Source of the DNA: an uncultured Bacteriovoracaceae bacterium
GTDB taxonomy: Bacteria > Bdellovibrionota > UBA1018
Assembly: GCA_964404365.1 (NCBI GenBank)
Contig: CAYOJT010000001.1
Span: forward strand, 1-41,450
Direction: 5' to 3'
DNA length: 41,450 bases
Below are positions 5,694 to 41,150 of the stretch, in pieces. A model generated the notes under the pieces. The model made no database searches. It was not told the origin of the DNA and was given only the letters and a program-made list of their open reading frames with translations. A program made the position numbers and the translations under genes. Numbering within the stretch: the first letter of the stretch is position 1; the number at the start of each line of letters is the position of its first letter.

Positions 5694-8600
5694 ATGCTAC
5701 TTTCTACTTCTTGTTGGCGCGTAATGCGAATGTCGGCTTCTGGCATTCACTTTATTACTTCTATCGCTTTCGCTTTAGCACTCGCTTCACCCATTTTTTC
5801 GGTCGAAGCGAAGGAAAAAAATTCGCCCGCAATAACCTCCTCTCAGGTCAAGCGGCTTCGAAAACCTGCAAGCGACGAGCTGAAGTTCCACGTCTATGAA
5901 AAATACGTTCGCGGACTTTCAAACAAAGAAGCATCTCACCTGAAGGGAATTTTTGATAGCTATGCAGTGATCGATCTGGAGGCGAGCGGTCTAACGGCCT
6001 GGAGATCTTGGTTAGACGAAGTGACGGAGCGCCTCACAGAGTCCGTTATGAAACACGGCGATCAATATCCGACCTATCGGATTGAAATCTTGGCGTCAGA
6101 TGAGCCGACCGCCTTTGTAGCGAAGTTTCGGAATGCTGGGTTTGAGAGTTATCGAGGTTACGTTTACTTCTCGACGGGCTTACTTGATAAAATGGCCGCT
6201 ACTCTACAGGGAGCTGGGAAAAAGGTTTCAGATTTGAATCCGGAACTTTTTCAGAAAGTCCTGGATGGTATGACGGGAGTCATCGCGCACGAGTTTGCAC
6301 ACCCGAAACAGGATGAAACCGTCAAGTGGAGTTGGAGAAGCGCCCAGGATAAATCGACTTTTAATCATGGTCAGGTGGACGAAGCGACTACTGACTTCTT
6401 AGGTATGCGACTTCTGAAAGACGCAGAACTTCCGCCCGATAACATGCTCACAGGTCTTCAGCTCTTATTTGGTGATAAACCCGAAAACTCGAATCGAGTT
6501 ATTCGAATTTTACAGGGCGGACTATCTACGCATCCTCAGGATAACTTACGCCTCAACTTGAATCGTGGAGCGCTTACTCAACTTCGAATGAAGGAAGGGC
6601 TAGTGGAAGCGAAGGCGATTTCGGTTCCCGTGGGGGATCTGTTACTCGAAAGTAAGATTGCCGAGACGGGTACAAGTTTACGGACGCAAGTTCGAGGCAT
6701 GTTCATTAGCGGATTACCAGAAAACGCGAGCGAGTTTTCGCGGGTCCTTGAACTATTGAAGCGCAACCTTCGAGAGAGTGGCTCAGCATATTCAAATCGC
6801 CGATACACGAAGCTATTGAATCAGATCGTTCAAGAAGGTTACGCCCCAAACTCCGACGAACAGAAGGCTTATCTCGCGTTTTACGATAGCATCTTGGCGA
6901 ACTCCGAAAATAAGCGTGAAGGAGTGCTCAGGTGTAAGTCACTGGCGCTCTCAGCGTTTAATACTTACGACGACCTGGTAGCGCCTGGGACCTATTTCCC
7001 AGATTCTTATAAGAAGAGACAGGTGCGCGTCTCTCCCTGGGCTAGAAGGCCAAATCAAGCGCGCGCTTTTAGATTACCGCTCGGTGAAACACCAAAAATC
7101 CTCTCGGATCTTCAGACTCAAGCATTTGAAAAAGCTTGGAGCGAGATGAGCGTTCCCGAAAAAGTTCATGCGATTGATCACCTCGACCCACTCTTTGAGC
7201 GCAATCTCATTGAGAAGGCTTTTGAGCAGTTGGCAACTGAAGTGGGAGCGCACGATGAGCTCATTCAAGTGGAGTTCCACTTAGCGAGATGGGCCCGTGG
7301 GATCACTTTCAATCAAACCGAGAAAATCGATCACTTTGCGTATGCGGAACTCAAAAAAATCATGTCACAGGTTCCATTTTCGGAACAAAAATTCATCCCA
7401 CGAATGATGAAGTATTTTCTCTATGAACGCGTTCCGCTCCTCTATTTGAAAGAACGCGCTAGGAAAGATGCAGCGTTTTTAGCGGTCTATAACGATGTAT
7501 TTGGCGTACCTGTCGAGGATTTACTTCGACACGCGGATAATCCGCCCGCATTGGGAATTGATCTTGCTCAAATGTTAACATCAAGTGAACGCCCAAGCCT
7601 TCTCAGTTGGCAGGTGTCGCCCTACAAAGAAAACCTCCCGATTTTACAAAAGGCTGATCGACCCTACCTGGGCGCGTACTGGAATCGGATTCAGGAAATC
7701 TTCAACAGCGATCAAAACCAAAAAGCGATCGTCTTTTACGCCGAATATTATCAGAAAGCAGATGAATTCGTGAAATCAAATTCTTCAGCCAGATTTTTCG
7801 GAAACTGGGCGAACTATGCGAACGCTCAGCCCGAAAAAGTCGCAGAACCGATTCACGAAGTTTTAATCGGCGGCCTCCCCGATCTTAAGAAGAAATTGAC
7901 CTACATTTATAACAGCGTGCCTAATGGTCCGCTCAACTGGCAGTTCTATGCAGATATGTTTCCGCTCATTAAAGCCGGGGAGGAGGAACTGTATTGGAAC
8001 TCTATAAAGCAAGGGACAAATAACGAGTTAAAGATTCTTGATATCCTGAGAAAGCGAAAACAGATTACGCCGGAGGTCTACGCGACTAGGTCTGCAAAAC
8101 TCCTTGAACCTGTCGAGGGGAAGATGCGCACAGCGGTGACCGCATTAGACCATTTTTCGACTCATATCATTTGGAAGGATCTCCAGGAAGGTGCTGAGAA
8201 AGCGCCCGGAACGTTCTTAAAATATGTTTTAGATAGTTTTGATCTGGGTAAATTTGATCGAGCACTCGATCAGCGTGAATCGACAAACAACGCCTTGAAA
8301 GTGAAATTGAAATATCATCCGGATTATGTAGAGCCGCTTGCAAAGGTGCACAAGGGGTTGAAGTCTGATTTTCTGAAGTACATCGGCTATACGAAACAGT
8401 TTAAAAACTTTTCAGTCACTGATCCAGAATTTAGACGGATCTTCGTGGAAAACTTTGCGAAAGCTCAAGAGTACCTCGCTTTGGTTTTCAATCCGGACGG
8501 AATGTGGTTGTCTGCGGAAATTCGACAACAGTTTAATGGCGGCCCATTCGATCGCCTGTTGTTCGAGTTTGTCCCTGTAGTTCCGGTCGAGGATCTTTCT

Positions 8601-10727
8601 CCGGAGCAGAAACTCACGCTCTGGAACATCTTTACTGCGAAACGTGCAAACCGATACACGGATGAGTTTTTTGAGGAAAACCTCCTGAAGGGTTGGCTGA
8701 ATGCGATCGAGCCTGAAAAGACTCGTATGGCCGAGGCTGTACTGGGTAGAGATCAGCTGCGCTCGGAGCGTATGAAGATGTTGATGACTCGACACCTGGT
8801 CGAACCAAAACTCGATGAGCTTTCGAAAGTCAAAGGTAAGGTTCCGGATAATGTAGTTTTCGACCTCGTCGGGACAATCCAGCGTTACAACCAACCTTCC
8901 TCGCGATTTAAAGATGATTTCATCGAAGAAATCGCCTGGAAGCTCGAGTTGAGTGAAAAACAATGCATGCGCTTCATCGAGCCAATGAAGAGTTTTAATT
9001 ATAAGGGGATTGATCCACGTACATTAAACGCGCTCTCGGCTCTTTCAGTTTCGCTCGAGTACTTGAGTGTGAAAGAAAAACTCCAGTTTCTTAGACACAT
9101 TCAAAACCCGGTGGATGATCTGATTCGGACGATTCCAAATTTAAAACGTGTGATCGAGACGGTGGGTAAGGCCTCAAATAAGACCGCCGAAGTTGAAGCA
9201 ATCTTCGATTATTTGGAGACCTTTATTCGTGATGCCAGCGATGGCGAAAAATTAGTGTTGTCCGAAGTCCTCATCGGAACAAGAGGGCATGGTTTATGGT
9301 TTAAGGGGCCTGAGGTTCGTAATGAACTCTACGAGCTTGCGGGCTTTAAAGGGAACGACGAGAAGCGACTTCTTTTTGAGTCCTACATTAAGGCTCTTCC
9401 AGCCCACGAGCATTCGCTTACCCTGTCTTACTTGATCAGTACGTATTCGCCGAAGCCTCAAAATGAACTTTTGAAGACTCTTGAGCTATTTGGAACTCCA
9501 GGAATCAAGTTCGCGCAAATGGCCTCTATCATGCAGGTTTTTGGTCCGGAGCGTTCTGCGGAATTGAGTAAGGCGAAAAATCGCGCGGCTCCTCCTACCC
9601 GCTCTGAAATCTACGGCTTGTTACGTGGGCGTATGAGTCCCGAAGAGTTTTCGAAAATTACGCGCGTAAAGAAACTCCTGGGCTCGGGTTCGATCAAATT
9701 TGTCGTGTCGGTTGAGTTTTCCGATGGCCGCTCGGAAGCGGTTTATATTCGTAGACCATTTCTGGATGACACGATTCGAGACACGCTCGACCTTTCTGAG
9801 AGATGGATGACAGAACTCAGGAAGGACGAGGGTTACGCGAACAAATTCGATTACGATTATTATATTCGGACTCTCAGGCAGCAGCTCGCGGATGAAATCC
9901 AGTTTAAACGTGAATTTGATCTCACGAAAAAAATGAACGAATTGTACGGAAAGGTTCGCTCTTATAAAGGGTGGCGTTTCCAACCCGTGAGCGCATCTTC
10001 GAAAAGTGTGCAGGGGGATAGCGTTCTTTTTTATTCGGAAGTTAAGGGCGCGGTTACATTCGACATGCTCACAGAAGCCCAGAAGCTTGAAGTCGGTCCG
10101 TATATTTTAAAAACGGAACTTGAGTTTCTATTTGCAGGCCAATTCGATGCCGATCGCCACATTGGAAACTATTTGATCGATGCCAGTTCGAAGAGGATTT
10201 ATCCTCTCGATCTAGCTCAGTCCTATTCGCTCAATCGGAATCGCTTTTTCACGGAGGGCGATCCGTATTATTTAGCAAAGATATTCTTGGGATTGGGTCA
10301 TGACGACAAGACAAAAGGTGCAAAAATTCTTTCAGAGACCTTTGTTAAACTCCACGACGCGCCCAACGTGATTTCGAGAGAAACTCAGGCGCTTCTAGCC
10401 TCCGAAATTGAGGCGATTCTGAAGTACGTGAATGCCGACGGTACACGTCTTCCGATGAACGAAGTATTTGTAAAAATTCTCGATCGCCTCAACTTCCATC
10501 GAGTCCGACTGCCAAGCCGCATGAGCTTAGGTGTTGTGAAGGATTTGTTGATTATTCTGAATGAGGAATACGCTAAAACTGTTCCCGCGAAGGTGCGAGA
10601 CGGGATCATCAAATCCTTTGTTCGGAAGCAAATAGTCTTGGGCGCGAGATACACCGTGTTTGATAAGATTGAAGATCTTTTCTCAACGAAGGTGAACTGC
10701 AGAGATATCACACACGATGTCCTTTAG
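5694..10727 (+). CDS. giant secreted multidomain protein (1,677 aa): signal peptide + M48-like zinc-protease module + long helical region + C-terminal ABC1/UbiB-like atypical kinase module
   Basis: Signal-peptide-like N-terminus (HFITSIAFALALASPIFSVEA|KE). The M48-type pattern is ...EPTAFVA...GYVYFSTGLLDKM...MTGVIAHEFAHPKQ (HEFAH = nt 6288-6302), followed by DEATTDFLGMRLL (E-x-x-x-D third-ligand region). The C-terminal ABC1-like motifs are GTPGIKFAQMASI (nt 9501-), LGSGSIKFVV, AVYIRRP, QFKREFDLTKKMNELY, FDADRHIGNYLID (nt 10143-) and PLDLAQ. ATG at 5730 (MSASG...) is an alternative start. Confidence 0.75.
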   Translation: MLLSTSCWRVMRMSASGIHFITSIAFALALASPIFSVEAKEKNSPAITSSQVKRLRKPASDELKFHVYEKYVRGLSNKEASHLKGIFDSYAVIDLEASGLTAWRSWLDEVTERLTESVMKHGDQYPTYRIEILASDEPTAFVAKFRNAGFESYRGYVYFSTGLLDKMAATLQGAGKKVSDLNPELFQKVLDGMTGVIAHEFAHPKQDETVKWSWRSAQDKSTFNHGQVDEATTDFLGMRLLKDAELPPDNMLTGLQLLFGDKPENSNRVIRILQGGLSTHPQDNLRLNLNRGALTQLRMKEGLVEAKAISVPVGDLLLESKIAETGTSLRTQVRGMFISGLPENASEFSRVLELLKRNLRESGSAYSNRRYTKLLNQIVQEGYAPNSDEQKAYLAFYDSILANSENKREGVLRCKSLALSAFNTYDDLVAPGTYFPDSYKKRQVRVSPWARRPNQARAFRLPLGETPKILSDLQTQAFEKAWSEMSVPEKVHAIDHLDPLFERNLIEKAFEQLATEVGAHDELIQVEFHLARWARGITFNQTEKIDHFAYAELKKIMSQVPFSEQKFIPRMMKYFLYERVPLLYLKERARKDAAFLAVYNDVFGVPVEDLLRHADNPPALGIDLAQMLTSSERPSLLSWQVSPYKENLPILQKADRPYLGAYWNRIQEIFNSDQNQKAIVFYAEYYQKADEFVKSNSSARFFGNWANYANAQPEKVAEPIHEVLIGGLPDLKKKLTYIYNSVPNGPLNWQFYADMFPLIKAGEEELYWNSIKQGTNNELKILDILRKRKQITPEVYATRSAKLLEPVEGKMRTAVTALDHFSTHIIWKDLQEGAEKAPGTFLKYVLDSFDLGKFDRALDQRESTNNALKVKLKYHPDYVEPLAKVHKGLKSDFLKYIGYTKQFKNFSVTDPEFRRIFVENFAKAQEYLALVFNPDGMWLSAEIRQQFNGGPFDRLLFEFVPVVPVEDLSPEQKLTLWNIFTAKRANRYTDEFFEENLLKGWLNAIEPEKTRMAEAVLGRDQLRSERMKMLMTRHLVEPKLDELSKVKGKVPDNVVFDLVGTIQRYNQPSSRFKDDFIEEIAWKLELSEKQCMRFIEPMKSFNYKGIDPRTLNALSALSVSLEYLSVKEKLQFLRHIQNPVDDLIRTIPNLKRVIETVGKASNKTAEVEAIFDYLETFIRDASDGEKLVLSEVLIGTRGHGLWFKGPEVRNELYELAGFKGNDEKRLLFESYIKALPAHEHSLTLSYLISTYSPKPQNELLKTLELFGTPGIKFAQMASIMQVFGPERSAELSKAKNRAAPPTRSEIYGLLRGRMSPEEFSKITRVKKLLGSGSIKFVVSVEFSDGRSEAVYIRRPFLDDTIRDTLDLSERWMTELRKDEGYANKFDYDYYIRTLRQQLADEIQFKREFDLTKKMNELYGKVRSYKGWRFQPVSASSKSVQGDSVLFYSEVKGAVTFDMLTEAQKLEVGPYILKTELEFLFAGQFDADRHIGNYLIDASSKRIYPLDLAQSYSLNRNRFFTEGDPYYLAKIFLGLGHDDKTKGAKILSETFVKLHDAPNVISRETQALLASEIEAILKYVNADGTRLPMNEVFVKILDRLNFHRVRLPSRMSLGVVKDLLIILNEEYAKTVPAKVRDGIIKSFVRKQIVLGARYTVFDKIEDLFSTKVNCRDITHDVL

Positions 10728-10765: not shown

Positions 10766-11512
10766 TTACCAGTTTCGTTTTTCGGCTACACCACTCTTAT
10801 CCGCGGCGAGTAGCTGTTCCTGGAGGTCTTTAATCCCAGAGTCGGCTGCGCGACCAAACCACATCGAAAAGATGCGCCTTGAAGCTCCAATTCCTACGAG
10901 AGCTTTTTGAAGAAAGCCTTCGCCGTTCACGAAGAGCAAGGTCTGGTTCGCATCGCCATTTTTCTTAAGACCAATCCAAATCGTTTGGCCCTCTTTTATG
11001 TCCCCACTTTTTTTCACCATATCGAGGAGTTCTTTTGCGACAGGGTCCTTATCTGGAAAGAAGCGATTTTCAGCGAGCGAGTCGGTGAAGCCCGCGAGGA
11101 GTTTTGCGTTATCGACGTCGCGGAGGAAGGTCATCGACATTGCCGCGACAGAAGCCTTTTCAATTGAATCGAACGCAGCGGCGATCGTTGATTTCTGGAA
11201 GACAGCATCATCATTCATGAAGACCTGGCCGACGTAGACCTTAGGCCAAAGAATCGCGATCTGTTTTTTTCGAATTCCAGCCGCAACGCGTTTCAAACTT
11301 TCCTTTTTTCCATCCACATCGATCGTCAAACTTTTGGCGAGAGGTACTTTCTCTAACCGGATCTCACCCGGCACAGAACTGAAGATCGAACTTGGCTCGG
11401 CAGCCCTGCTAGGGGCGGATAGAGCGAGAAGTCCAAGCGAGGAAAGTAGAAGTACACTCAGTAAAATTAGGGATGAACTCTTATTTTTTGAAACTGTTTT
11501 CATAACGGACAT
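10766..11512 (-). CDS. secreted chalcone-isomerase-like family protein (function unknown)
   Basis: 248-aa ORF. AAGGAGAG lies 6 nt upstream of the ATG. Signal peptide LILLSVLLLSSLGLLALSAPSRA|AE. Core pattern LKRVAAGIRKKQIAILWPKVYVGQVFM matches the bacterial chalcone-isomerase-like fold (G-x-G-x-R-x-K...KVY...). Confidence 0.5.
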   Translation of the reverse strand: MSVMKTVSKNKSSSLILLSVLLLSSLGLLALSAPSRAAEPSSIFSSVPGEIRLEKVPLAKSLTIDVDGKKESLKRVAAGIRKKQIAILWPKVYVGQVFMNDDAVFQKSTIAAAFDSIEKASVAAMSMTFLRDVDNAKLLAGFTDSLAENRFFPDKDPVAKELLDMVKKSGDIKEGQTIWIGLKKNGDANQTLLFVNGEGFLQKALVGIGASRRIFSMWFGRAADSGIKDLQEQLLAADKSGVAEKRNW

Positions 11513-32832: not shown

Positions 32833-35800
32833 TTAGTGTAATTCGATCGAAACCATCTTCGACACGCCCGGTTCTTCCATCGTCACGCCGTAGAGCGTGT
32901 CGTTCAGTTCCATCGTTTTCTTGTTGTGCGTGATGATGATGAATTGGGACTTCGTCGACATCTCACGAAGGAGCGCGTTGAATTTCCCGATGTTTGCGTC
33001 GTCAAGCGGCGCATCGACCTCGTCCAGAATACAGAACGGAGATGGCTTCACCATGAAGATCGCGAAAATGAGCGATACGGCGGTGAGAGCTTTCTCTCCC
33101 CCGGAGAGAAGACCGATATTGACGATCTTTTTCCCTGGAGGCTGAGCGAGGATGTCGACTCCCGCTTCTAAAATGTCGGTCACACCTTCTGGATAAACGA
33201 GCGAAAGTTTCGCCTGACCGCCACCAAAAATGATTGGGAAGAGGCGCTCGAAACGATCTGCGATCGCTTCGAAAGCTTTTTGGAAACGTTCGACCGAAGT
33301 CTTGTTGATGTGCTCAATCGCTTGATTGAGGTCATCCATGGACTTCAGAAGGTCGTTTTTCTCGCTCATGAGGTAATCGAAACGCTTTTTCTTCTCGTCG
33401 TATTCTTCGACAGCGGTTGGGTTTACATCACCCAAACGTCTGATTTTTTCACGAAGGCGTTCAACTTCTTCCGCTAGGATCTTCTCCTCTTCCGCAGACA
33501 TTTCGTGAGTAACGACCGGATCGTTCATCTCTTCTTGAATTGGAGAAACGGAAGGAGCGTCCAAGCAGCCTGGGCCGTATTTCTCTTCCAGGTTCTGGAG
33601 GAGGTGAGAAAGTTCTGCGGTCATGCGCTCGATATCGAGCGAGAACTGAGTTGCCGCGGCCGTCTTTTCATCGCCAGCCGAGTGAAGTTCTTTAATTCGA
33701 TCCATCGCGCCGTTTACTTTTGCAGAAACGGTCTCAAGACGGTCGCGCATTCCTGCGAATGCTTCACGTTTTTCTGAAAGCGCGCGGGTGAGTTCTTCGA
33801 TGCGAACAACGAATTCGCTGTCTCCACCGGAATGTTCTTCGTTTTCAGCGCGAGCACGCTCTAACTGGCGCTCGACATCCGAGAGGCGACGCTCACGATC
33901 GCGAATGAGGTTCATTCCCGCTTCAAGTTCGCGGTGAATCGAACCTGCGCGCTCTTTTAAGCCCGCTTCCGTTATTTTAAGAGCGTTAAATTCTTCTTCC
34001 ATTCCGCGGAGCGACATCTCGAGTTGCGCGAGGTCTTGTTCAGAGGAGCGAATTTTAGACTCAAGTTCGGCCTTCGCGGTTTGAAGCGCGGAAAGTTGTT
34101 CAAGAGTCGACTGACGCTCATGGATGGAGTTTTCTTCTTCGGACTTCATCTCTGCGAGTTCGTACTCTTCGAGTTCGAGCGCAGATTTCGCTTCATTCAA
34201 TGAGCGCGCGGTTGTTTGAACGTCGCGCTCGCAGGTTGCGGAGAGGATTTCAGCCGCATGGAGTTCGATTTTAAGAGCCGAAAGGTTCGCATCCATCATC
34301 TCGAGTTGAGAAGAGAGATTTTGAACGAGAGTTTCATGTTCTTTGTTCGCGATTTCAGCTTTTTCTACAAGCGCTTTCATCTCTGCGATCACGCGTTTGC
34401 GACCGAGGAGGGAAGCAGAGTTGTCGGATTGAGTTGCGCCGCCTTTCAGCGACCCATCTTGAGCGAAAACTTCGCCGTTTTTCGAAACGATGGAGAATCC
34501 GCCGAGAGACTGAATTCCGCCGTTTTGGATGAGGCTCGGGATCGCGTCGAAGTTTTCAACCACAAGCGCGTTCGAGAGGAGGCTCATCGCAGCTGAGCGC
34601 CCCGAGGAACCGAGCTTGTCGTTTACCTGAACGAAATCGGAAAGCGTTCCGACGACAGAGAAACCCGAAGCGGCGAGTTTTGATTTCGCGCTCGATGCGT
34701 CCATGGCGCCCAGCGTGTTCGAGCTGACGTAGATCGTCGCGCGACCTTGTCCGCCGTTTGACAGTTCGCGGAGAGCTTCAAGAGCAAATGCAGCGTCGTC
34801 CGAGGTCAGGTTTTCGAGTTTCCCTTCCAACCAACCTTCTACGGCTTTCTCGAAACCCGCTTGAATATCGAGTCCATCTGCAAGGGCTTTTAGGCTGCCA
34901 TCGCGGCCATTGTTTTTTGCCCAATCCAGTACGGATTTAGGTCCATCGCCGAATCCTTCGAATGCAGCGTCGAGTTCTTCGAGAGAGGAAAGACGTGACT
35001 TCATTTTCAGAAGTTCGTGTGAGGATTCTTCGAAGGCGCGCTTTTCAGCTTTCGTTTCTTGGTCTTTGCTTTCAAAAGTGGCCGAGAGCTCTTTGCACTC
35101 CGATTGAAGTGAAGATTTCTTCGACGAAGCCGCAGCGAATGCGCTTTGGGCGCGTTCCGCTTCTTGTGCGACAAGCGCGACTTTCTCTTGAAGAGAAATG
35201 ATCTGTTGATTCAAGCGCTCGACTTGAGCATGTGCGGACTCGGCTTTGGATGCGAGACCGGCCGCGCGTGAATTTAAGTCGGAATCGCGAGCAATAGACG
35301 CCATGAGTTCGCGCTTCAAAGTATCGACCGATTTACGTGCCGATTCGGTTTCAGAGCGAACGGAACGAAGCGCTTCTTCTTTAAGGGAGGCGCGTTCTTT
35401 TGCTGCCTCGAAGTCAGAGCTCGCGCTTGCGCTCTCAGATTCAAGACTCGAAATCTTCGACTTCTCATTTTCGATCGCAGCGCGAAGATCTACACGCTCG
35501 GACTCGAAGGTTTCCACCTGAGTTTGAAGGTCGAGCTGGCGGCGCTTCGAAAGATCGAGAGCCGACTGAGTGCGAGTCAGCTCGCCCGACATTTCGTTGA
35601 TCGCGTTTTGATAGTCTTCAGCCTGTTTCGAGAGTGTGAGTTGCTCGATACGGTCAGATTCGATCGAAAGTTCCGCGGTGGAAAGCTCTGCGCGGAGACC
35701 TGCGATTTCTTGTTCTAATGTTTCACGCTGAGAACGAGCGCTTTCTAGTTTTTCGCGCAAAACCTTATTTTTCCTTCGTCCCCAAGTCATTTCTTTATCG

Positions 35801-36510
35801 AGGAGTTCGGCTTTGAAGGTTTTGTACTGAGCGGCTTTATGCGCCTGACGCTCGAGAGAGTTCACGGAGCGTTCGATTTCGGCGATCACGTCGTTGAGGC
35901 GTGCGAGGTTTGCCGTCGCGCTTTCTAATTTTCTGAGAGATTCCTGTTTACGCTTTTTATATTTCGCAATACCAGCCGCTTCTTCGATCAGTGTGCGGCG
36001 ATCTTCGGGTTTAGCGTTAACGATTTTCTGGATCTCGCCCTGGGCAATGATGGAGTAGCCTTTTGCGCCGACCCCGGTATCCAAGAAAAGTTCATGAATG
36101 TCTTTCAAGCGAGCGGGAACACCATTGATGAGGTATTCGCCTTCGCCTGTGCGGTACACGCGGCGGGTGACGGAAACTTCTTTTGCTCTTAAGTGAATCG
36201 GAACGTCTTTTACGGTCGCGCCAGCAGGTGCGTTTTCGGTGTCTGGAGCGTCGGTCTCCATGACGAGAGTCGCTTCAGCGAGAGCGAGGGGTTGGTACTT
36301 GGAGGAGCCATTGAAAATGAGGTCGGCCGAGCCGCCTGCGCGGATGTGTTTATGAGACTGTTCACCCATGACCCAAAAGAACGCGTCGACGATATTAGAC
36401 TTACCGCACCCGTTGGGTCCGACAATCCCCGTAATATCGTGATCGAAGTGGATCACTGTTTTGTCTTTGAATGATTTAAAACCTTGTACTTCCAACCGCT
36501 TAACGCGCAT
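32833..36510 (-). CDS. smc: chromosome partition protein Smc
   Basis: 1,225-aa ORF with Walker A GPNGCGKSN. It has long coiled-coil arms around a central hinge (GGFSIVSKNGEVF...). C-terminal signature LSGGEKALTAVSLIFAIF and Walker B FCILDEVDAPLD. Confidence 0.96.
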   Translation of the reverse strand: MRVKRLEVQGFKSFKDKTVIHFDHDITGIVGPNGCGKSNIVDAFFWVMGEQSHKHIRAGGSADLIFNGSSKYQPLALAEATLVMETDAPDTENAPAGATVKDVPIHLRAKEVSVTRRVYRTGEGEYLINGVPARLKDIHELFLDTGVGAKGYSIIAQGEIQKIVNAKPEDRRTLIEEAAGIAKYKKRKQESLRKLESATANLARLNDVIAEIERSVNSLERQAHKAAQYKTFKAELLDKEMTWGRRKNKVLREKLESARSQRETLEQEIAGLRAELSTAELSIESDRIEQLTLSKQAEDYQNAINEMSGELTRTQSALDLSKRRQLDLQTQVETFESERVDLRAAIENEKSKISSLESESASASSDFEAAKERASLKEEALRSVRSETESARKSVDTLKRELMASIARDSDLNSRAAGLASKAESAHAQVERLNQQIISLQEKVALVAQEAERAQSAFAAASSKKSSLQSECKELSATFESKDQETKAEKRAFEESSHELLKMKSRLSSLEELDAAFEGFGDGPKSVLDWAKNNGRDGSLKALADGLDIQAGFEKAVEGWLEGKLENLTSDDAAFALEALRELSNGGQGRATIYVSSNTLGAMDASSAKSKLAASGFSVVGTLSDFVQVNDKLGSSGRSAAMSLLSNALVVENFDAIPSLIQNGGIQSLGGFSIVSKNGEVFAQDGSLKGGATQSDNSASLLGRKRVIAEMKALVEKAEIANKEHETLVQNLSSQLEMMDANLSALKIELHAAEILSATCERDVQTTARSLNEAKSALELEEYELAEMKSEEENSIHERQSTLEQLSALQTAKAELESKIRSSEQDLAQLEMSLRGMEEEFNALKITEAGLKERAGSIHRELEAGMNLIRDRERRLSDVERQLERARAENEEHSGGDSEFVVRIEELTRALSEKREAFAGMRDRLETVSAKVNGAMDRIKELHSAGDEKTAAATQFSLDIERMTAELSHLLQNLEEKYGPGCLDAPSVSPIQEEMNDPVVTHEMSAEEEKILAEEVERLREKIRRLGDVNPTAVEEYDEKKKRFDYLMSEKNDLLKSMDDLNQAIEHINKTSVERFQKAFEAIADRFERLFPIIFGGGQAKLSLVYPEGVTDILEAGVDILAQPPGKKIVNIGLLSGGEKALTAVSLIFAIFMVKPSPFCILDEVDAPLDDANIGKFNALLREMSTKSQFIIITHNKKTMELNDTLYGVTMEEPGVSKMVSIELH

Positions 36511-36701: not shown

Positions 36702-39700
36702 ATGCGAATTCGTTTCGTAGATGGGGTCGTGTCACTTGCACTTGTGCTCACACAGGTGAGTGGCGCAGTTGCGAGTGGTGGGGGAGGTACTCCTTCTCCA
36801 GCTCCGAAAGTTCCCATGACGAGTTCTGGTTTAACTTACGCGGTTCGTTTTGCGCGTATGAATCCGAAAGTCACCGTCGACCAGAAAAAGGCAGTCGCTC
36901 AGAAGGCGTTTGAGTTTATTCGCGAAAGAGTGGCCAAGAACTTAGATCTTAAATCCCCCGAAGATCTTTATCGTGAGTTCGCAACTCACCCTGATCTGAT
37001 GAAGGGCTGGAACAAAACGAGCGATGGTAAACGGATTAAAGATCCGGATTTGGGTGAACTCGTTTCCGAGTTCAATTTGCTGATTTCACAACTGGACGTC
37101 GAAAAGACGCTTGGAAAATGTAAGGACTACAAAAGGAACTTGGGCGCGGCTCTTATGGAAGGCACCTGTTCCGTGTGCGGCTGTCGTGAAGGATTTGGTT
37201 GGGAAAATAATCTCCACTTAAGCTGGGCTGCAAAGCAAGGTCAGAAGAAAGGCAAGAGCGGCAAGAGCTCGAAAGAGCTAAAGGAACCTTCAAAACCCAA
37301 GGAGTATTCCGCTTGGATGCCCGGATTCGCATTCGGAAAGAATATTGAACAGCTCATCGGTATCTCGGATCTGGGCACCTACTTCGCGAGTAGTGCGCGC
37401 TCTGGCGATCCGTTTGCGCCTACGCTTGATGAAGTAAAAACGAAGAGACCGGATTTAAAGACGCCGGAAGATCTCGCTGCGGTCGCCATGATGGCGGAGT
37501 TTCGTGGAAACGCTTATAAGCGCGCGATGCTTTCCGGTCTGAAGAGCGAACTCGTGAACGAAATTCAATTTTCGGATAAATACCTTGGAAAATCTCAAGA
37601 CGAAATCGCCTCCCTCATCGACAAGCGCGTCGATGAAGAGGTTTCGAAGCAATGCAATCATTGTAGTCTGAGTCGTGCGATCGATCAGGACTTACGCACG
37701 AAACTCAAAAACACGATGCGCTCTGAGATTTACAGCGGATCCGCTGCGCCCTATGCGAGTCGTGATGCTGCTGCGCAGCTGTGTGGTGAATTAAAAGCAC
37801 TGAATTATGTCTTCGACACCGAATACCAAAAGCAGATGCGTGCTGCCTATTTAAGTGGGAACGGTGGAAAAGAACCGCGAGGCGGACTCCACAACACGCA
37901 GTTTTCGAATGCGGAAAATGCACAAGCGCCCGTGAAGCTTAGACTCGATCGCGAGCGCCGGAAAGTTCTCAGTACCGTTATCAATTCCTCTCAAACGGGA
38001 AAACTCATGCTGACTAAGGCGATGACTTGGTTGGATGGAAATAATGCCGGAAACACGCGCCTTAAGTGTACTCCCGGTTCCGAGAAGGAAGATGCAGAAC
38101 TTATCGTAAAAGCGGAAGCAGAGGCAGTAGAGGCCGGCAATAAATTTACAAAAAAGTTGAACGACAACGTTCACCCTAACGACTACTCCCTCAAGACTTT
38201 CAACGAAGACTTAATAACACTTCTTAAAATCTCACCGCACCCATTTGGCGAGGCAGTCATGCTTTCCTCATCGCCCGGGCAGGCCTCGAAGTTTGCGTGC
38301 GATCTCATTCAGGTGGTCAGCGACCAGGATCTTGCTGACGCCTATTTAGATGATGCGATTCTTTGGGGTACGGTGGGTTTGACGGTCTTGTCTTTAGGTA
38401 CCCTTTCGCCACTCTCGATGGCCGGTCTCGCTGTGAACGCAACCATCGGTGTAGCTTCGGCTACAGGATCTCTGATTCACTCGAATATCGCATACACGAA
38501 TGCGGCGAATTACAGGACTTGGTCGATCGCGCAGGATTTCGATCCTTATCTCAGGAACTTCAGTCAAAAGGAATATGAACGCTACCAATCGCTTCAAACG
38601 ATGGCCGTGATCGGTTACGGGTTTACCGTTTTAGATTTAAATTCGATCGTCATGAAAGCGATCAAGAGCGGTAAAACGACGAGCGAGGCCCTCGCCGAAG
38701 CGGAAAATCTACTCCGTTCGCCGCCTGAAAAAATCTACACCGAGGTATTAACCACAGATGCTGAGGTTGTCCTCGGTGGTGGAAAGACGGTCTCTAAGAG
38801 TCAGGGTAAGGCACTCTATAAAGCGGCCCAAGTCGACATCGAAAGCGCGAAAACCGTCCTCAAGGATGCCGGGTTCGCGGATAAAGAAGTAGAGTTACTT
38901 CTCGCGCGCCGGATTAAAGAAGAAGCGAAAGTTATTGTTGAAAAACCGACTGTAAAAGAACTGGATGGAGTGGTTGTCACTGGGACCAAACGGAAGCCAG
39001 TGACCGGGACGCGGACCGAGTTTGGTCCTGGGCTACAGCGAGATCTCTTTAAACCTGGAGAGTTCGACGAGATTCTTAAGACCAAAGGTGTTGTCGGCCT
39101 TCAAGAAGAGTTAGAAAAAATTGGACTTAAAACTAAGAAGGTGGTTCTAGAACGTGAGGTCGAGGTGCAGGGTGAAATTGTCACACGCAAGTATGACGCT
39201 TTGATGCTTGATCCAGCGTTGTTGTCAGAGTCGAACGTCACTACGAATCATCTCGTTAACTATTTGAGACGTGCTCAACAACGTGCGGGCTCAAATGCAC
39301 CTGGAGTTGATGTAATTTTTCGACTTGATGACTTCGGAATCAAAGAGCTCGGTGATTTCTCACAAATAGGAAAGGTGAAAGAAGCTACATTCAGCAAACA
39401 AGTTTTTGAAGAATACTTGAGAACGGGTGATGCGGGCCCAATCATCAAGCACGAATACCGCCATTATCTTTTGTACAATAAAGCGGGTGTCAGTGACGAT
39501 CTCCAGATTATTTTTGAAGGCATGTCAGTTTCTGGCTACGAAGACCGTTTGGTCATGCATGAATACTACAACTATCATCGCCAGGTGTGGGAAGAGTTCG
39601 CTACCGCAGATATGCGAAGTGCACGTTCGAAAATATTTTCGAAACTCGATGAAAAAAGTGTCTTAACCAAGTCCGACCTTACAGAACTTGTAAAGGATAA

Positions 39701-41150
39701 TGGACGCCTGAATGCGGCAGCCCGAAGGAGTAAACAAGCGGGAGCGACTGCGACTGAGATGAATGAAAATATCATTAGCTTTGTCCAAGAGTTTACAAAG
39801 ATTAAGTCCGGACTCAGCACAGAAACGGCGATTATTACGCCATCGCAGTATGGGGTGACCGTTGAGGCTAAAGTAAATGGAAAATGGGTAACTGCGGATG
39901 TTCCGTGTAAATCATGTGAGCTACTCACCGATGATCTCACTGGGCCGGCACGGACTGCAATCGAACAGCAGGTAAAAGAAGAAGTGGGGAAAAGTTTCGA
40001 GAATCTCTACAGCCGTGCGATCAAAGAGCGAGAGCTCTTCGCGGAACTGAAAGCAGTTGAGAACAAGATTGAATTCCAGATTTTTAGTGAAACCCCAGTG
40101 AATTCGAAGGAGCTCAAGGAGCTTTATCTTAGACAGGAAAAATTACGCCAACAGATATCTAGAGAGGTGGGCGTCGACGGAAAAAATACCCAAAACTTCG
40201 TCCGTCCATCTACCGGTCAATCCCGCATCACAACTCAGACCCGCGATCGCGCCTACGGAAATACCGAAGGCATCGGAAAAGTGGATTTCTCAGGAAATAA
40301 AAAGTACCTGGGCGGAACAAATATCCTAAAGACGGAGACTCAACCCGAGCGAGTGACGGCATTTCGGGATGCGTACAATCAGGGAAAAATTACGCGAGAT
40401 ATGAAAATTTCCTTCCAGTATGGAAACGGGGGCTCATGGGAAACAGCCCACATCGTCGGCTACGATAAATCAAAGGGTATTGTCCGTGTTCGAATTGGTA
40501 ATGATCCGCGAAATACGATCGTTTTGGATGAGTATCAGATCATGACGGCGAAGGAGATCCCTTACGCTCCTGGAAAATTTGAGAGTAAAGAATTCAAACT
40601 CGAACGTTTTTCGTTCGATAAAGAGCCTGAGCTTGTGGTGGAAAAAACAAACCCCGAAAGTTCGGTGAAAATTAATTCTGAAAAAAAGCATACAACCACA
40701 CCCTTAACGGTCGTCGATGTTCCAGTAAACTCGGGACCCGTCATGGCTGAAATAAAAACCGAAACTGGAATTTATAAAACTACCTTTAAACAGGAGCAAG
40801 CTTACCAGAAGTGGGTCGGCGAGACTCCGACCACACACCCTGGTGTAAGTGGATTAAATGCGACGAAATCCACCGAGAAATTTTATTATATGAATGAGAC
40901 TGAAACAGTTTATAAAAACTTGGTTTCCGTCAAATCTAACGAAGCTTTCGATTTGATAAAGGTTCGGGCGCCGGATGGAAAAATCGTAGAGTATAAGAAA
41001 CCCATCTTTCTCGAACGATCCAAATCATTTTTGAAAATCGAAGTTGATGGAGTGAAAAAGACATTTTACTGGAGAGAAGTCATGCAAATCGACGGAAAGG
41101 GTTTTAGTAGATCGTATCCTGACCCTAAGCCGTTCCAGCTTCAGCCTTAA
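36702..41150 (+). CDS. giant orphan protein (1,482 aa): signal peptide, central hydrophobic hairpin, candidate HExxH motif, beta-rich C-terminus
   Basis: Signal peptide VVSLALVLTQVSGAVA|SGGGG. Cys motifs CSVCGC (~37164-37190) and CNHC. Hydrophobic segments at aa 552-592 (nt 38355-38477) and aa 631-651 (nt 38592-38654). HEYRH at aa 917-921 (nt 39450-39464), followed by MHEYYNYH (aa 952-959). No family recognised by eye. It is divergent from smc. Confidence 0.7.
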   Translation: MRIRFVDGVVSLALVLTQVSGAVASGGGGTPSPAPKVPMTSSGLTYAVRFARMNPKVTVDQKKAVAQKAFEFIRERVAKNLDLKSPEDLYREFATHPDLMKGWNKTSDGKRIKDPDLGELVSEFNLLISQLDVEKTLGKCKDYKRNLGAALMEGTCSVCGCREGFGWENNLHLSWAAKQGQKKGKSGKSSKELKEPSKPKEYSAWMPGFAFGKNIEQLIGISDLGTYFASSARSGDPFAPTLDEVKTKRPDLKTPEDLAAVAMMAEFRGNAYKRAMLSGLKSELVNEIQFSDKYLGKSQDEIASLIDKRVDEEVSKQCNHCSLSRAIDQDLRTKLKNTMRSEIYSGSAAPYASRDAAAQLCGELKALNYVFDTEYQKQMRAAYLSGNGGKEPRGGLHNTQFSNAENAQAPVKLRLDRERRKVLSTVINSSQTGKLMLTKAMTWLDGNNAGNTRLKCTPGSEKEDAELIVKAEAEAVEAGNKFTKKLNDNVHPNDYSLKTFNEDLITLLKISPHPFGEAVMLSSSPGQASKFACDLIQVVSDQDLADAYLDDAILWGTVGLTVLSLGTLSPLSMAGLAVNATIGVASATGSLIHSNIAYTNAANYRTWSIAQDFDPYLRNFSQKEYERYQSLQTMAVIGYGFTVLDLNSIVMKAIKSGKTTSEALAEAENLLRSPPEKIYTEVLTTDAEVVLGGGKTVSKSQGKALYKAAQVDIESAKTVLKDAGFADKEVELLLARRIKEEAKVIVEKPTVKELDGVVVTGTKRKPVTGTRTEFGPGLQRDLFKPGEFDEILKTKGVVGLQEELEKIGLKTKKVVLEREVEVQGEIVTRKYDALMLDPALLSESNVTTNHLVNYLRRAQQRAGSNAPGVDVIFRLDDFGIKELGDFSQIGKVKEATFSKQVFEEYLRTGDAGPIIKHEYRHYLLYNKAGVSDDLQIIFEGMSVSGYEDRLVMHEYYNYHRQVWEEFATADMRSARSKIFSKLDEKSVLTKSDLTELVKDNGRLNAAARRSKQAGATATEMNENIISFVQEFTKIKSGLSTETAIITPSQYGVTVEAKVNGKWVTADVPCKSCELLTDDLTGPARTAIEQQVKEEVGKSFENLYSRAIKERELFAELKAVENKIEFQIFSETPVNSKELKELYLRQEKLRQQISREVGVDGKNTQNFVRPSTGQSRITTQTRDRAYGNTEGIGKVDFSGNKKYLGGTNILKTETQPERVTAFRDAYNQGKITRDMKISFQYGNGGSWETAHIVGYDKSKGIVRVRIGNDPRNTIVLDEYQIMTAKEIPYAPGKFESKEFKLERFSFDKEPELVVEKTNPESSVKINSEKKHTTTPLTVVDVPVNSGPVMAEIKTETGIYKTTFKQEQAYQKWVGETPTTHPGVSGLNATKSTEKFYYMNETETVYKNLVSVKSNEAFDLIKVRAPDGKIVEYKKPIFLERSKSFLKIEVDGVKKTFYWREVMQIDGKGFSRSYPDPKPFQLQP

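Follow-up and report, generated by a model that had tools for sequence, protein, structure and literature searches.

What would an exported bacterial protein do with both a protease and a kinase-like fold? The question is raised by one gene in a 41,450-nucleotide stretch of DNA (the window) from an uncultured Bacteriovoracaceae bacterium, on contig CAYOJT010000001.1. Few members of the kinase superfamily are as poorly understood as the UbiB/ABC1 proteins, which to our knowledge have been described only on the cytoplasmic or matrix side, where they take part in the homeostasis of quinones and lipids. The gene, at 5694..10727 of the forward strand, is a complete open reading frame with an ATG start, encoding 1677 aa plus a stop; no interruption was found, in keeping with what an earlier sequence-only reading had claimed. 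Its product is one polypeptide of four parts: a signal sequence, an M48 protease domain, a helical solenoid and a UbiB/ABC1-fold domain. The same layout (signal peptide, M48-type zincin, helical stretch, ABC1/UbiB-like region) had been proposed from the letters of the gene, and every motif then quoted was recovered at its place. The account developed here, to which we assign a probability of about 0.5, is that of a protein that is exported and brings two enzymes to bear on the envelope or on prey; activity, location and substrate are all predicted.

The architecture is not peculiar to this genome. Word-indexed protein searches returned only 1-2 matches each and gave a false look of extreme rarity, which was corrected by an exhaustive profile search. 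The latter produced 661 matches at E<=1e-3 and 160 representatives (clusters at 50% identity) at E<=1e-30. Of the 150 matches listed, 121 reach a length of 1,400 aa or more; the M48-like N-terminal domain, and with it both domains, is present in 113 of them. Since so many long listed matches share the architecture, a one-off fusion is ruled out, and so is a chimeric assembly, the same order of parts recurring in independent assemblies. The family is conserved and uncharacterised, its members being proteins of ~1,550-1,750 aa with an identical order of parts. Family members have been seen so far in Bdellovibrionota, to which the named close relatives belong, and in Elusimicrobiota. Database names for them are limited to 'hypothetical protein' or 'AarF/UbiB family protein'. 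The earlier remark that no characterised protein has such an architecture holds for the literature searched, in which no description of an M48-UbiB fusion or of a Bdellovibrio UbiB-like secreted protein was found. One member, P0037, bears an additional SAM-dependent methyltransferase domain.

Base composition was the one feature pointing to a foreign origin. The gene has a G+C content of 46.7%, compared with 49.7% for the rest of the window, so the AT-richness noted earlier is numerically true, but it is marginal: the GC3 of the gene (0.504) falls inside the 0.456-0.615 spanned by its neighbours, and other genes of the window are equally low or lower in G+C. Horizontal transfer argued from a 3-point difference was rejected as too weakly founded, and the marginal bias makes no case for it. 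Furthermore, neither the plasmid collection nor PADLOC yielded a match to the gene, the flanking genes are housekeeping genes, and the two-domain architecture is that of the long representatives at large. That the locus is a toxin or defence gene gained by horizontal transfer, or two unrelated genes joined by an assembly error, is thus very improbable. A scan of promoters and terminators gave counts equal to the shuffled expectation.

Export is predicted from the N-terminus. The putative Sec signal peptide (5694..5810, + strand; aa 1-39, cleavage between SVEA and KEK) is assigned on hydrophobicity and on the signals of homologues. The segment at aa 13-40 is the only hydrophobic one in the protein, alternative starts at M11 or M13 yield the same signal, and close homologues have textbook signal peptides of the AxA type or with a lipobox, all of which bears out the signal peptide proposed in the sequence-only reading. 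Across 108 full-length members, the N-terminal segment is strongly hydrophobic in 80, some with lipobox-like sites, and the hydrophobic N-terminus is missing in about 20-28; an internal TM-like segment occurs in only two. The protein is therefore likely, judging from these features, to be translocated across the inner membrane.

A different reading of the same segment is that it is no export signal, or a mere membrane anchor, and that the enzyme, like canonical UbiB, faces the cytoplasm and draws on the ATP there. ATP is indeed cytoplasmic, about a quarter of members are without a hydrophobic N-terminus, and a methyltransferase domain was added in P0037. In Bdellovibrionota FG-1, moreover, the kinase half stands alone as an ORF that has no signal. 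That arrangement, however, looks like a deletion plus frameshift, because homology extends upstream of the ATG of the kinase-half ORF. The short h-regions of many members, followed by AxA or lipobox sites, are characteristic of cleaved Sec signals and not long enough to cross the membrane, and positive charges precede the h-region, which predicts a C-terminus outside. A cytoplasmic-side enzyme is accordingly improbable.

The M48-type, BepA-like zinc metalloprotease domain (5874..6623, + strand; aa ~61-310) was recognised by Pfam, family profile, alignment to BepA, AF2 modelling and Foldseek. Pfam Peptidase_M48 (PF01435) matches aa 105-210 with E 8e-6 and 26.2 bits, above the gathering score of 20.3, confirming the M48 module first suspected from its motifs, and a 49-sequence family profile searched against the PDB retrieved the M48 peptidase 3c37 (E 5e-6). 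In the AF2 model a three-stranded beta-sheet is followed by the active-site helix, with a pLDDT >90 for the protease domain. Foldseek matched BepA (6ait) with probability 1.00, but with an E of 6.5e-3 and a TM score of no more than 0.27, since the query was the whole 1,200-residue model.

The active site is well preserved. The HEFAH zinc-binding and catalytic motif (6288..6302, + strand; aa 199-203, with H199, E200 and H203) lies between the upstream motif GYVYFSTGLLDKM (aa 155-167) and DEATTDFLG (aa 229-237), and its residues are kept in 104-107 of about 111 aligned members. E230 (6381..6383, +), probably the third zinc ligand, aligns with BepA E201 and is kept in 107 members. In the STHP motif (6525..6536, +; aa 278-281), H280 aligns with BepA H246, the fourth zinc ligand; of 121 members, 109 have H280 and 115 have P281. 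Four degenerate members have lost HExxH and E230 together, three of them H280 as well, the fourth being gapped there. By alignment, all four zinc-site residues of BepA are thus retained (H199, H203, E230 and H280), and the zinc site appears complete, including the residue of the autoinhibitory 'histidine switch'; the roles of E201 and H246 are those described for BepA (10.1101/2020.07.07.192476).

Between the two enzyme-like ends lies an alpha-helical solenoid of ~930 residues. For its modelling, the homologue alignment over query aa 41-1240 was kept, and one over aa 41-842 was discarded because the query tail was pulled onto kinase columns. The resulting AF2 model (aa 41-1240; pLDDT 79.7, pTM 0.76) contains only helices beyond about aa 183, and the helical region drew nothing but generic alpha-solenoid matches in Foldseek, so that the helical character assumed earlier is borne out. 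The solenoid is of two kinds. A divergent part (6624..8219, + strand; aa 311-842) is all-alpha with a pLDDT of 40-85, includes a low-confidence linker at about aa 408-454, and is poorly conserved among homologues. The last ~400 residues, a helical pre-kinase domain (8220..9413, +; aa 843-1240) modelled with a pLDDT of ~90, are strongly conserved and contain the motifs RANRYTD, KDDxxE, FIEPMKSFNY and LPAHEHSL. Identity to homologues is 32-41% over aa ~843-1656, a span that also covers the kinase domain.

The C-terminal region (9414..10727, + strand; aa 1241-1677) comprises a UbiB/ABC1-type atypical kinase-like domain and a tail. Pfam ABC1 (PF03109) covers aa 1327-1508 with E 1.1e-5 and 25.2 bits against a gathering score of 22.9, and the 49-sequence family profile matches COQ8A, COQ8B and Rv3197 in the PDB with E 3e-17 to 5e-16, both in line with the ABC1/UbiB-like module of the earlier reading. 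The AF2 model of this part is of modest quality (pLDDT 61.6); its top 12 Foldseek matches are nevertheless all COQ8A, Rv3197 or MSMEG_1954 (E 1e-6 to 3e-4, probability 1.00). The UbiB equivalog model TIGR01982 aligns with aa 1253-1612 at 38.5 bits, far under its cut-off of 487.55, and the identity of a housekeeping UbiB was rejected.

Most of the UbiB signature is kept. Within GIKFAQ (aa 1270-1275), KFAQ (9507..9518, +; K1272, Q1275) corresponds to the UbiB 'KxGQ'-type motif with Gly replaced by Ala, and in the family K is found in 138, G or A in 143 and Q in all 148 of 148 members. The alphaC glutamate E1407 (9912..9914, +), in QFKREF (aa 1403-1408), is kept in 142 of 150 members. The catalytic loop FDADRHIGN (10143..10169, +; aa 1484-1492) supplies D1487, H1489 and N1492, conserved in 146, 143 and 145 of about 149 aligned members, and the DFG-equivalent LDLAQ (10206..10220, +; aa 1505-1509) supplies D1506, present in 149 of 149, and Q1509, present in 141. 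The UbiB/ABC1-fold nucleotide-binding domain thus retains, besides its KxGQ-type motif, the glutamate of alphaC, the catalytic Asp and Asn and the metal-binding Asp.

One catalytic residue has seemingly moved. AVYIRRP, which had been listed among the ABC1/UbiB-series motifs, is present at aa 1349-1355 but without the catalytic lysine: Y1351 (9744..9746, +) occupies the canonical beta3 ('VAIK') position, at which Rv3197 and COQ8A have an aligned Lys. Elsewhere in the family this position is M, L, A, Y, S or V. In the nucleotide loop GSGSIK (9681..9698, +), part of LGSGSIKFV (aa 1329-1337), K1335 replaces the loop glycine of UbiB 'SIGQV' in alignments to Rv3197 and COQ8A, and 140 of 150 members have Lys there. 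A single member, P0099, has Gly at the loop position (1335), and it alone has Lys at 1351. On the strength of the alignment and this one mutually exclusive case, we infer that loop K1335 stands in for the lysine absent from beta3, on the pattern of the WNK kinases, a precedent for a relocated catalytic lysine (PMC4718504).

The tail has a signature of its own. C1669 (10698..10700, +) is a conserved Cys near the C-terminus within the family motif C-x-x-[LAI]-[LF]; a Cys occurs within the last 30 aa in 102 of 121 full-length members, compared with a mean of 3.4% in control windows. A CaaX box was considered and rejected, as the C-terminal Cys is at position -4 in only 2 of the 102. As for the protein as a whole, both enzymatic ends are probably active rather than relics, since their catalytic residues are conserved over >100 clusters at 50% identity.

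The genomic setting is of a more ordinary kind. The gene is flanked by core housekeeping genes, including lepB, a gene for an LptF/G-family permease and a LolA-like gene. No neighbour from the window recurs at homologue loci, and shared neighbours are absent among nine loci; a conserved gene neighbourhood is lacking, and no pathway is supported by context. The gene is disrupted at 4 of about nine close-homologue loci and is thus dispensable in some lineages.

Such surroundings could suit a housekeeping envelope quality-control factor, in which the protease would act in the periplasm of the producer itself, with the helical body as a scaffold, much as the TPR domain is in BepA, and the UbiB-like domain as an ATP-independent binder of lipids or other hydrophobic ligands. 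The BepA-type zinc site and the Foldseek match to BepA speak for it, as do the predicted signal peptide, the core genes around it and the occurrence of the family in Elusimicrobiota. Retention of the catalytic Asp and Asn, metal-binding Asp, alphaC Glu and loop Lys in about 95% of members is, however, difficult to account for unless the domain carries out nucleotide chemistry; nor is the neighbourhood conserved, and disruption in several relatives would be unusual for a core envelope factor. This role is conceivable, if on balance unlikely.

In the preferred account of an exported two-enzyme protein, the UbiB-like domain would bind and hydrolyse ATP by means of the lysine moved to the nucleotide loop (K1335). 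It would spend that ATP in handling a hydrophobic or lipid-linked ligand, by analogy with COQ8 and with UbiB, an ATPase that extracts lipid intermediates (PMC13418538), or it would phosphorylate a protein. The M48 head would be kept latent by H280 and, once released, would cut a substrate protein that is unfolded or associated with a membrane. ATP is generally considered absent from the periplasm, and the action is for that reason placed in a compartment fed ATP by the target cell, which for a Bdellovibrionota producer would most likely be the prey cell or bdelloplast. We know of no predators among Elusimicrobiota, so a prey-directed role cannot be general. In its most specific form the proposal is a Sec-exported, active UbiB-type ATPase or kinase with a WNK-like loop lysine, working outside the producer's cytoplasm in prey or another ATP-containing target compartment. 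There it would use ATP to extract or phosphorylate a lipid-linked or membrane protein, a step coupled to proteolysis by the latent M48 domain of the same chain, and the C-terminal Cys tail would be a regulatory plug or attachment site. That full chain of steps is speculative and, taken as a whole, rather unlikely to be correct.

Taken together, a conserved UbiB branch that is joined to a BepA-like protease, and whose members mostly bear a signal peptide, would carry the fold to the envelope or to target cells, and an exported UbiB-type enzyme poses the question of its ATP source. With the loop lysine, catalytic-lysine relocation would have a second instance, independent of the first. In the predatory Bdellovibrionota, the protein is a concrete candidate, open to testing, for a large factor in predation or in the envelope that combines several enzymes.

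Among known systems, BepA (YfgC) and other M48 peptidases share with the query HExxH on the active-site helix and a signal peptide, predicted in the query, for the periplasm. As in BepA, a Glu in a Q-x-x-E-x-x-[AT]-D helix would be the third zinc ligand, an [ST]HP motif is present (STHP in the query aligning with LTHP in BepA) and a helical domain follows the protease domain. The spacing from HExxH to this Glu is 27 residues in the query and 61 in BepA, and identity is only ~15% in the Foldseek alignment. Pfam detects no counterpart of the BepA TPR domain in the query, whose helical part, unlike that of BepA, comprises ~930 residues and ends in a kinase-like domain.

UbiB, COQ8A and COQ8B (PF03109; PDB 4ped, 5i35, 9tvn) have the same fold by Foldseek and profile, with a KxGQ-type motif about 58 residues ahead of the nucleotide loop, an alphaC Glu, a D-x-H-x-G-N catalytic loop and a D-F/L-G/A-Q metal-binding motif. 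In contrast to these proteins, the query lacks the beta3 lysine and has a lysine in the nucleotide loop, which reads GSGS or GSAS in its family and AAAS in UbiB/COQ8. The query has a predicted signal peptide, whereas UbiB/COQ8 are cytoplasmic or in the matrix; it lacks the C-terminal transmembrane helices of UbiB, having only the N-terminal hydrophobic segment, and it carries about 1,240 extra N-terminal residues. The best single-sequence PDB matches are the mycobacterial soluble ABC1-family proteins Rv3197 and MSMEG_1954 (PDB 5yjz, 7cyr), with a gapless 27-residue alignment between Rv3197 and the query that spans the nucleotide loop and beta3. Both keep the beta3 lysine (VAVKIQYP), unlike the query, and their chains of only ~450 residues are without a protease or solenoid part.

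WNK kinases offer an analogy only, as an unrelated kinase family to which any likeness would be convergent. Their catalytic lysine comes from beta2 or the glycine-rich loop and not from beta3, and by alignment the same would apply to the query. The query loop is GSGSIKFV (family consensus GSASiKtV), with the lysine 16 residues before the vacant beta3 position; the WNK1 loop, which we take to be GRGSFKTV, presumably places its lysine 17 residues ahead of the corresponding vacancy.

The gene under study is a single unbroken frame of 1677 codons with an ATG start (5694..10727, + strand), and the motifs quoted in the sequence-only reading were all found where they had been placed. Word-indexed protein searches returned almost no relatives of its product. 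Scanning genome and metagenome collections by pattern yielded relatives with both ends in a single reading frame, and the sources of relatives from these scans were a Bdellovibrionia MAG (intact, 1656 aa), a Bacteriovoracaceae MAG, Bdellovibrionota bacterium FG-1, a Bdellovibrionales MAG and two metagenome contigs. Identity to homologues reaches 32-49% over aa ~59-400 and 32-43% over aa ~843-1656, while the region between aa ~400 and ~843 is divergent. An exhaustive HMMER search of 1.84 billion representatives, with a profile covering the last 835 residues as query, gave 661 matches at E<=1e-3, of which 311 also pass E<=1e-10 and 160 pass E<=1e-30. The 150 matches listed include 121 proteins of 1,400 aa or more in which the profile aligns to the C-terminal end; 113 of these 121 carry an M48-like domain, as detected by an HMM made from the N-terminal domain. 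Where organisms are named, the close branch comes from Bdellovibrionota and Bdellovibrionales and a distant branch from Elusimicrobiota; the source databases call the proteins only "hypothetical protein", "AarF/UbiB family protein" or "predicted unusual protein kinase". A chimeric assembly was excluded because the same two-domain architecture recurs across these long family members and in independent assemblies. The M48-UbiB fusion first noticed in this one gene is real, but it is no one-off, as the number of representatives at E<=1e-30 attests to a conserved family. Literature searches for a characterised protein of this architecture found none, in agreement with the sequence-only reading. 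What we rate as new is an exported branch fusing M48 and UbiB domains, each of a known kind.

The proposed M48-type zincin pattern was borne out by Pfam, in which Peptidase_M48 matches aa 105-210 at 26.2 bits against a curated cut-off of 20.3. Three motifs are kept in six close homologues and in the wider family, namely G-x-x-x-H-E-x-x-H-P (H199, E200, H203), Q227-x-x-E230-x-x-[AT]-D234 and [ST]-H280-P281 ... R286. Profile alignment to E. coli BepA equates H199/H203 with H136/H140, E230 with E201 and H280 with H246. In BepA, zinc is bound by H136, H140 and E201, with H246 as an additional, fourth ligand that keeps out the catalytic water, a "histidine switch" conserved across M48 (10.1101/2020.07.07.192476). 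Four members have lost HExxH; E230 is gone in all four and H280 in three, the fourth being gapped at that position. Such joint loss is what one shared zinc site predicts. In an AlphaFold2 model of aa 41-1240 (49-sequence alignment; pLDDT 79.7, pTM 0.76), the protease domain has confidence >90 and includes a three-stranded sheet that precedes the HExxH helix. Foldseek retrieved BepA (6ait) at probability 1.00, with E and TM values kept weak by the use of the entire 1,200-residue model as query, and the family profile matched the M48 peptidase 3c37 at E 5e-6.

Between about aa 183 and aa 1240 the same model is all helix. Its confidence is low in a linker (~aa 408-454), moderate to about aa 760 and high (pLDDT about 90) for a domain spanning about aa 770 to 1240, which coincides with the strongly conserved pre-kinase block and its motifs RANRYTD, KDDxxExxAW, FIEPMKSFNY and LPAHEHSLTLSYL. 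Nothing had been recognised in this middle from sequence, and Foldseek likewise yielded only generic alpha-solenoids (exportins, karyopherins) at E about 1e-4 to 1e-2 and TM 0.1-0.2. We read the modelled helical middle as a probable scaffold with no identifiable relative.

The C-terminal domain matches ABC1 in Pfam (aa 1327-1508, 25.2 bits vs a curated cut-off of 22.9). The NCBIfam UbiB equivalog model aligned to aa 1253-1612 at only 38.5 bits against its cut-off of 487.55, and the domain is UbiB-like but is not the housekeeping UbiB. A modest first AlphaFold2 model of aa 843-1677 (four sequences, pLDDT 61.6) had UbiB-family proteins as all of its best Foldseek matches (COQ8A, Rv3197, MSMEG_1954; E 1e-6 to 3e-4, probability 1.00), and the family profile matched COQ8A/B at E 3e-17. 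Conservation was counted family-wide over the matches listed (~150). The KxGQ-type motif is kept at K1272 in 138/148 and at Q1275 in 148/148 members, the alphaC Glu (E1407) in 142, the catalytic-loop residues D1487, H1489 and N1492 in 146, 143 and 145, the metal-binding Asp (D1506) in 149 and the Gln that follows it (Q1509) in 141. The ABC1/UbiB motif series originally proposed stands in Pfam match, fold and catalytic motifs, but fails at the beta3 lysine, where AVYIRRP carries a tyrosine. This residue, Y1351, aligns gap-free to the Rv3197 lysine (VAVKIQYP vs EAVYIRRP), the counterpart of the family consensus "avlvqrP" in COQ8A is "AMKIQYP", and the position varies among M/L/A/Y/S/V across the family. 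In 140/150 members a lysine (K1335) stands in place of the glycine of the UbiB loop "SIGQV", and in 123/152 the vacant beta3 position follows it after 16 residues. One family member, P0099 (1740 aa), is the sole representative with Gly in the loop and also the sole one with Lys at beta3 (ALKVQRP), an arrangement that could be either ancestral or the product of a reversion. By analogy, we infer that K1335 replaces the beta3 lysine in the style of WNK kinases, the known example of active kinases in which a beta2 lysine does so (PMC4718504).

The predicted signal peptide was upheld: the protein has a sole hydrophobic segment, aa 13-40, with SVEA/KEK after it, and close homologues have textbook signals (MKNFLILVLFSITSVCA/SSD; ...LQMPQAFA/AEG; ...LTLSFA/QDE). 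Lipobox-like sites occur in some distant members. Under a simple criterion of hydrophobicity, the N-terminal segment is strongly hydrophobic in 80 of 108 full-length members and borderline in several others; about 20 have no such segment, many of them bearing P/A/S/T/Q-rich N-terminal extensions. Only 2 of the 108 have an internal TM-like segment. Given these N-termini and the near absence of internal segments, most of the family, including the protein studied here, looks Sec-exported and either soluble or lipid-anchored. The median Cys count of the family proteins is three, and 102 of 121 full-length members place one within their last 30 residues (vs a mean of 3.4% in control windows), in a C-x-x-[LAI]-[LF] motif usually 4-10 residues from the end (here C1669, 10698-10700, + strand). 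A CaaX box was rejected, since only 2/102 of these cysteines are at position -4.

The gene had also been thought AT-richer than its neighbours. Numerically this holds (46.7% G+C vs 49.7% across the remaining window), but it carries little weight: its GC3 of 0.504 is within the neighbours' range, several other window genes are equal or lower in G+C, and the compositional signal is negligible. Core chromosomal genes flank it, including pyrB, lepB, lepA, a TRAM-domain methyltransferase, a TPR protein, an HTH_25-domain protein, an LptF/G-family permease, pepA, a class II aminoacyl-tRNA synthetase, a LolA-like gene and SMC. No neighbour is conserved across homologue loci that could help to place its function; PADLOC and plasmid searches gave no match for the gene. 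A convergent 247-aa ORF (10766-11512, - strand), separated by a 38-nt gap, has no Pfam match and no counterpart at the homologue loci. Farther away, a 1482-aa ORF (36702-41150, + strand) adjoins the SMC gene (32833-36510, - strand), and Pfam gives nothing for it at E<=0.001.

Four of ~9 close homologue loci are disrupted, which may reflect real decay or assembly errors. In FG-1 (L005:9899-12977), the ~640-aa middle is deleted and the frame is shifted, leaving two ORFs with a 14-nt overlap: a 454-aa ORF with signal peptide and M48 domain, and a signal-less 575-aa kinase ORF, named "AarF/UbiB family protein" by NCBI, which begins exactly at the conserved MKSFNF motif, with homology extending 5 codons upstream of its ATG. 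RIFOXYD1 (L006:~10168) retains a truncated, frameshifted remnant of the M48-like part only. Two otherwise full-length homologues each contain a single in-frame stop codon, TAG in one (L007:2651-2653) and TAA in place of AAA at a conserved Lys in the other (L008:9309-9311). On an Elusimicrobiota contig (L011:1589-12818), a family member lies in a tight same-strand cluster with proteins of 332, 624, 479 and 448 aa, none with a Pfam hit; this is possibly a lineage-specific operon, and the arrangement is not seen at other loci. The family member P0037 (1912 aa, ENA metagenome) has an added SAM-dependent methyltransferase domain at its C-terminus (MTS/PrmA-like, aa 1708-1845), a non-hydrophobic N-terminus and a strongly acidic stretch in its N-terminal region.

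The periplasm is generally considered to lack ATP. Near-complete conservation of the nucleotide-chemistry residues argues that the UbiB-like domain still uses ATP, and we favour a site of action where target-cell ATP would be available. For a Bdellovibrionota producer this would be the prey cell or bdelloplast, where the latent M48 head might cleave envelope or membrane proteins. Alternatively, the proteins could act in the producer's own envelope or in its cytoplasm, two roles with which the Elusimicrobiota members, the signal-less members and the methyltransferase-bearing P0037 are compatible. Taken together, the architecture read from the sequence was right, and the effector role remains a proposal.

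Both halves of the fusion depart from their known counterparts. The Glu equivalent to E201 comes 27 residues past HExxH, as compared to 61 in BepA, and no TPR repeats were detected, unlike in BepA. UbiB/COQ8 proteins are now mainly viewed as ATPases pulling hydrophobic isoprenoid intermediates out of membranes, with an N-terminal extension filling the protein-substrate site (PMC13418538). Unlike canonical bacterial UbiB, most of the family described here has the look of exported proteins that are soluble or lipid-anchored.
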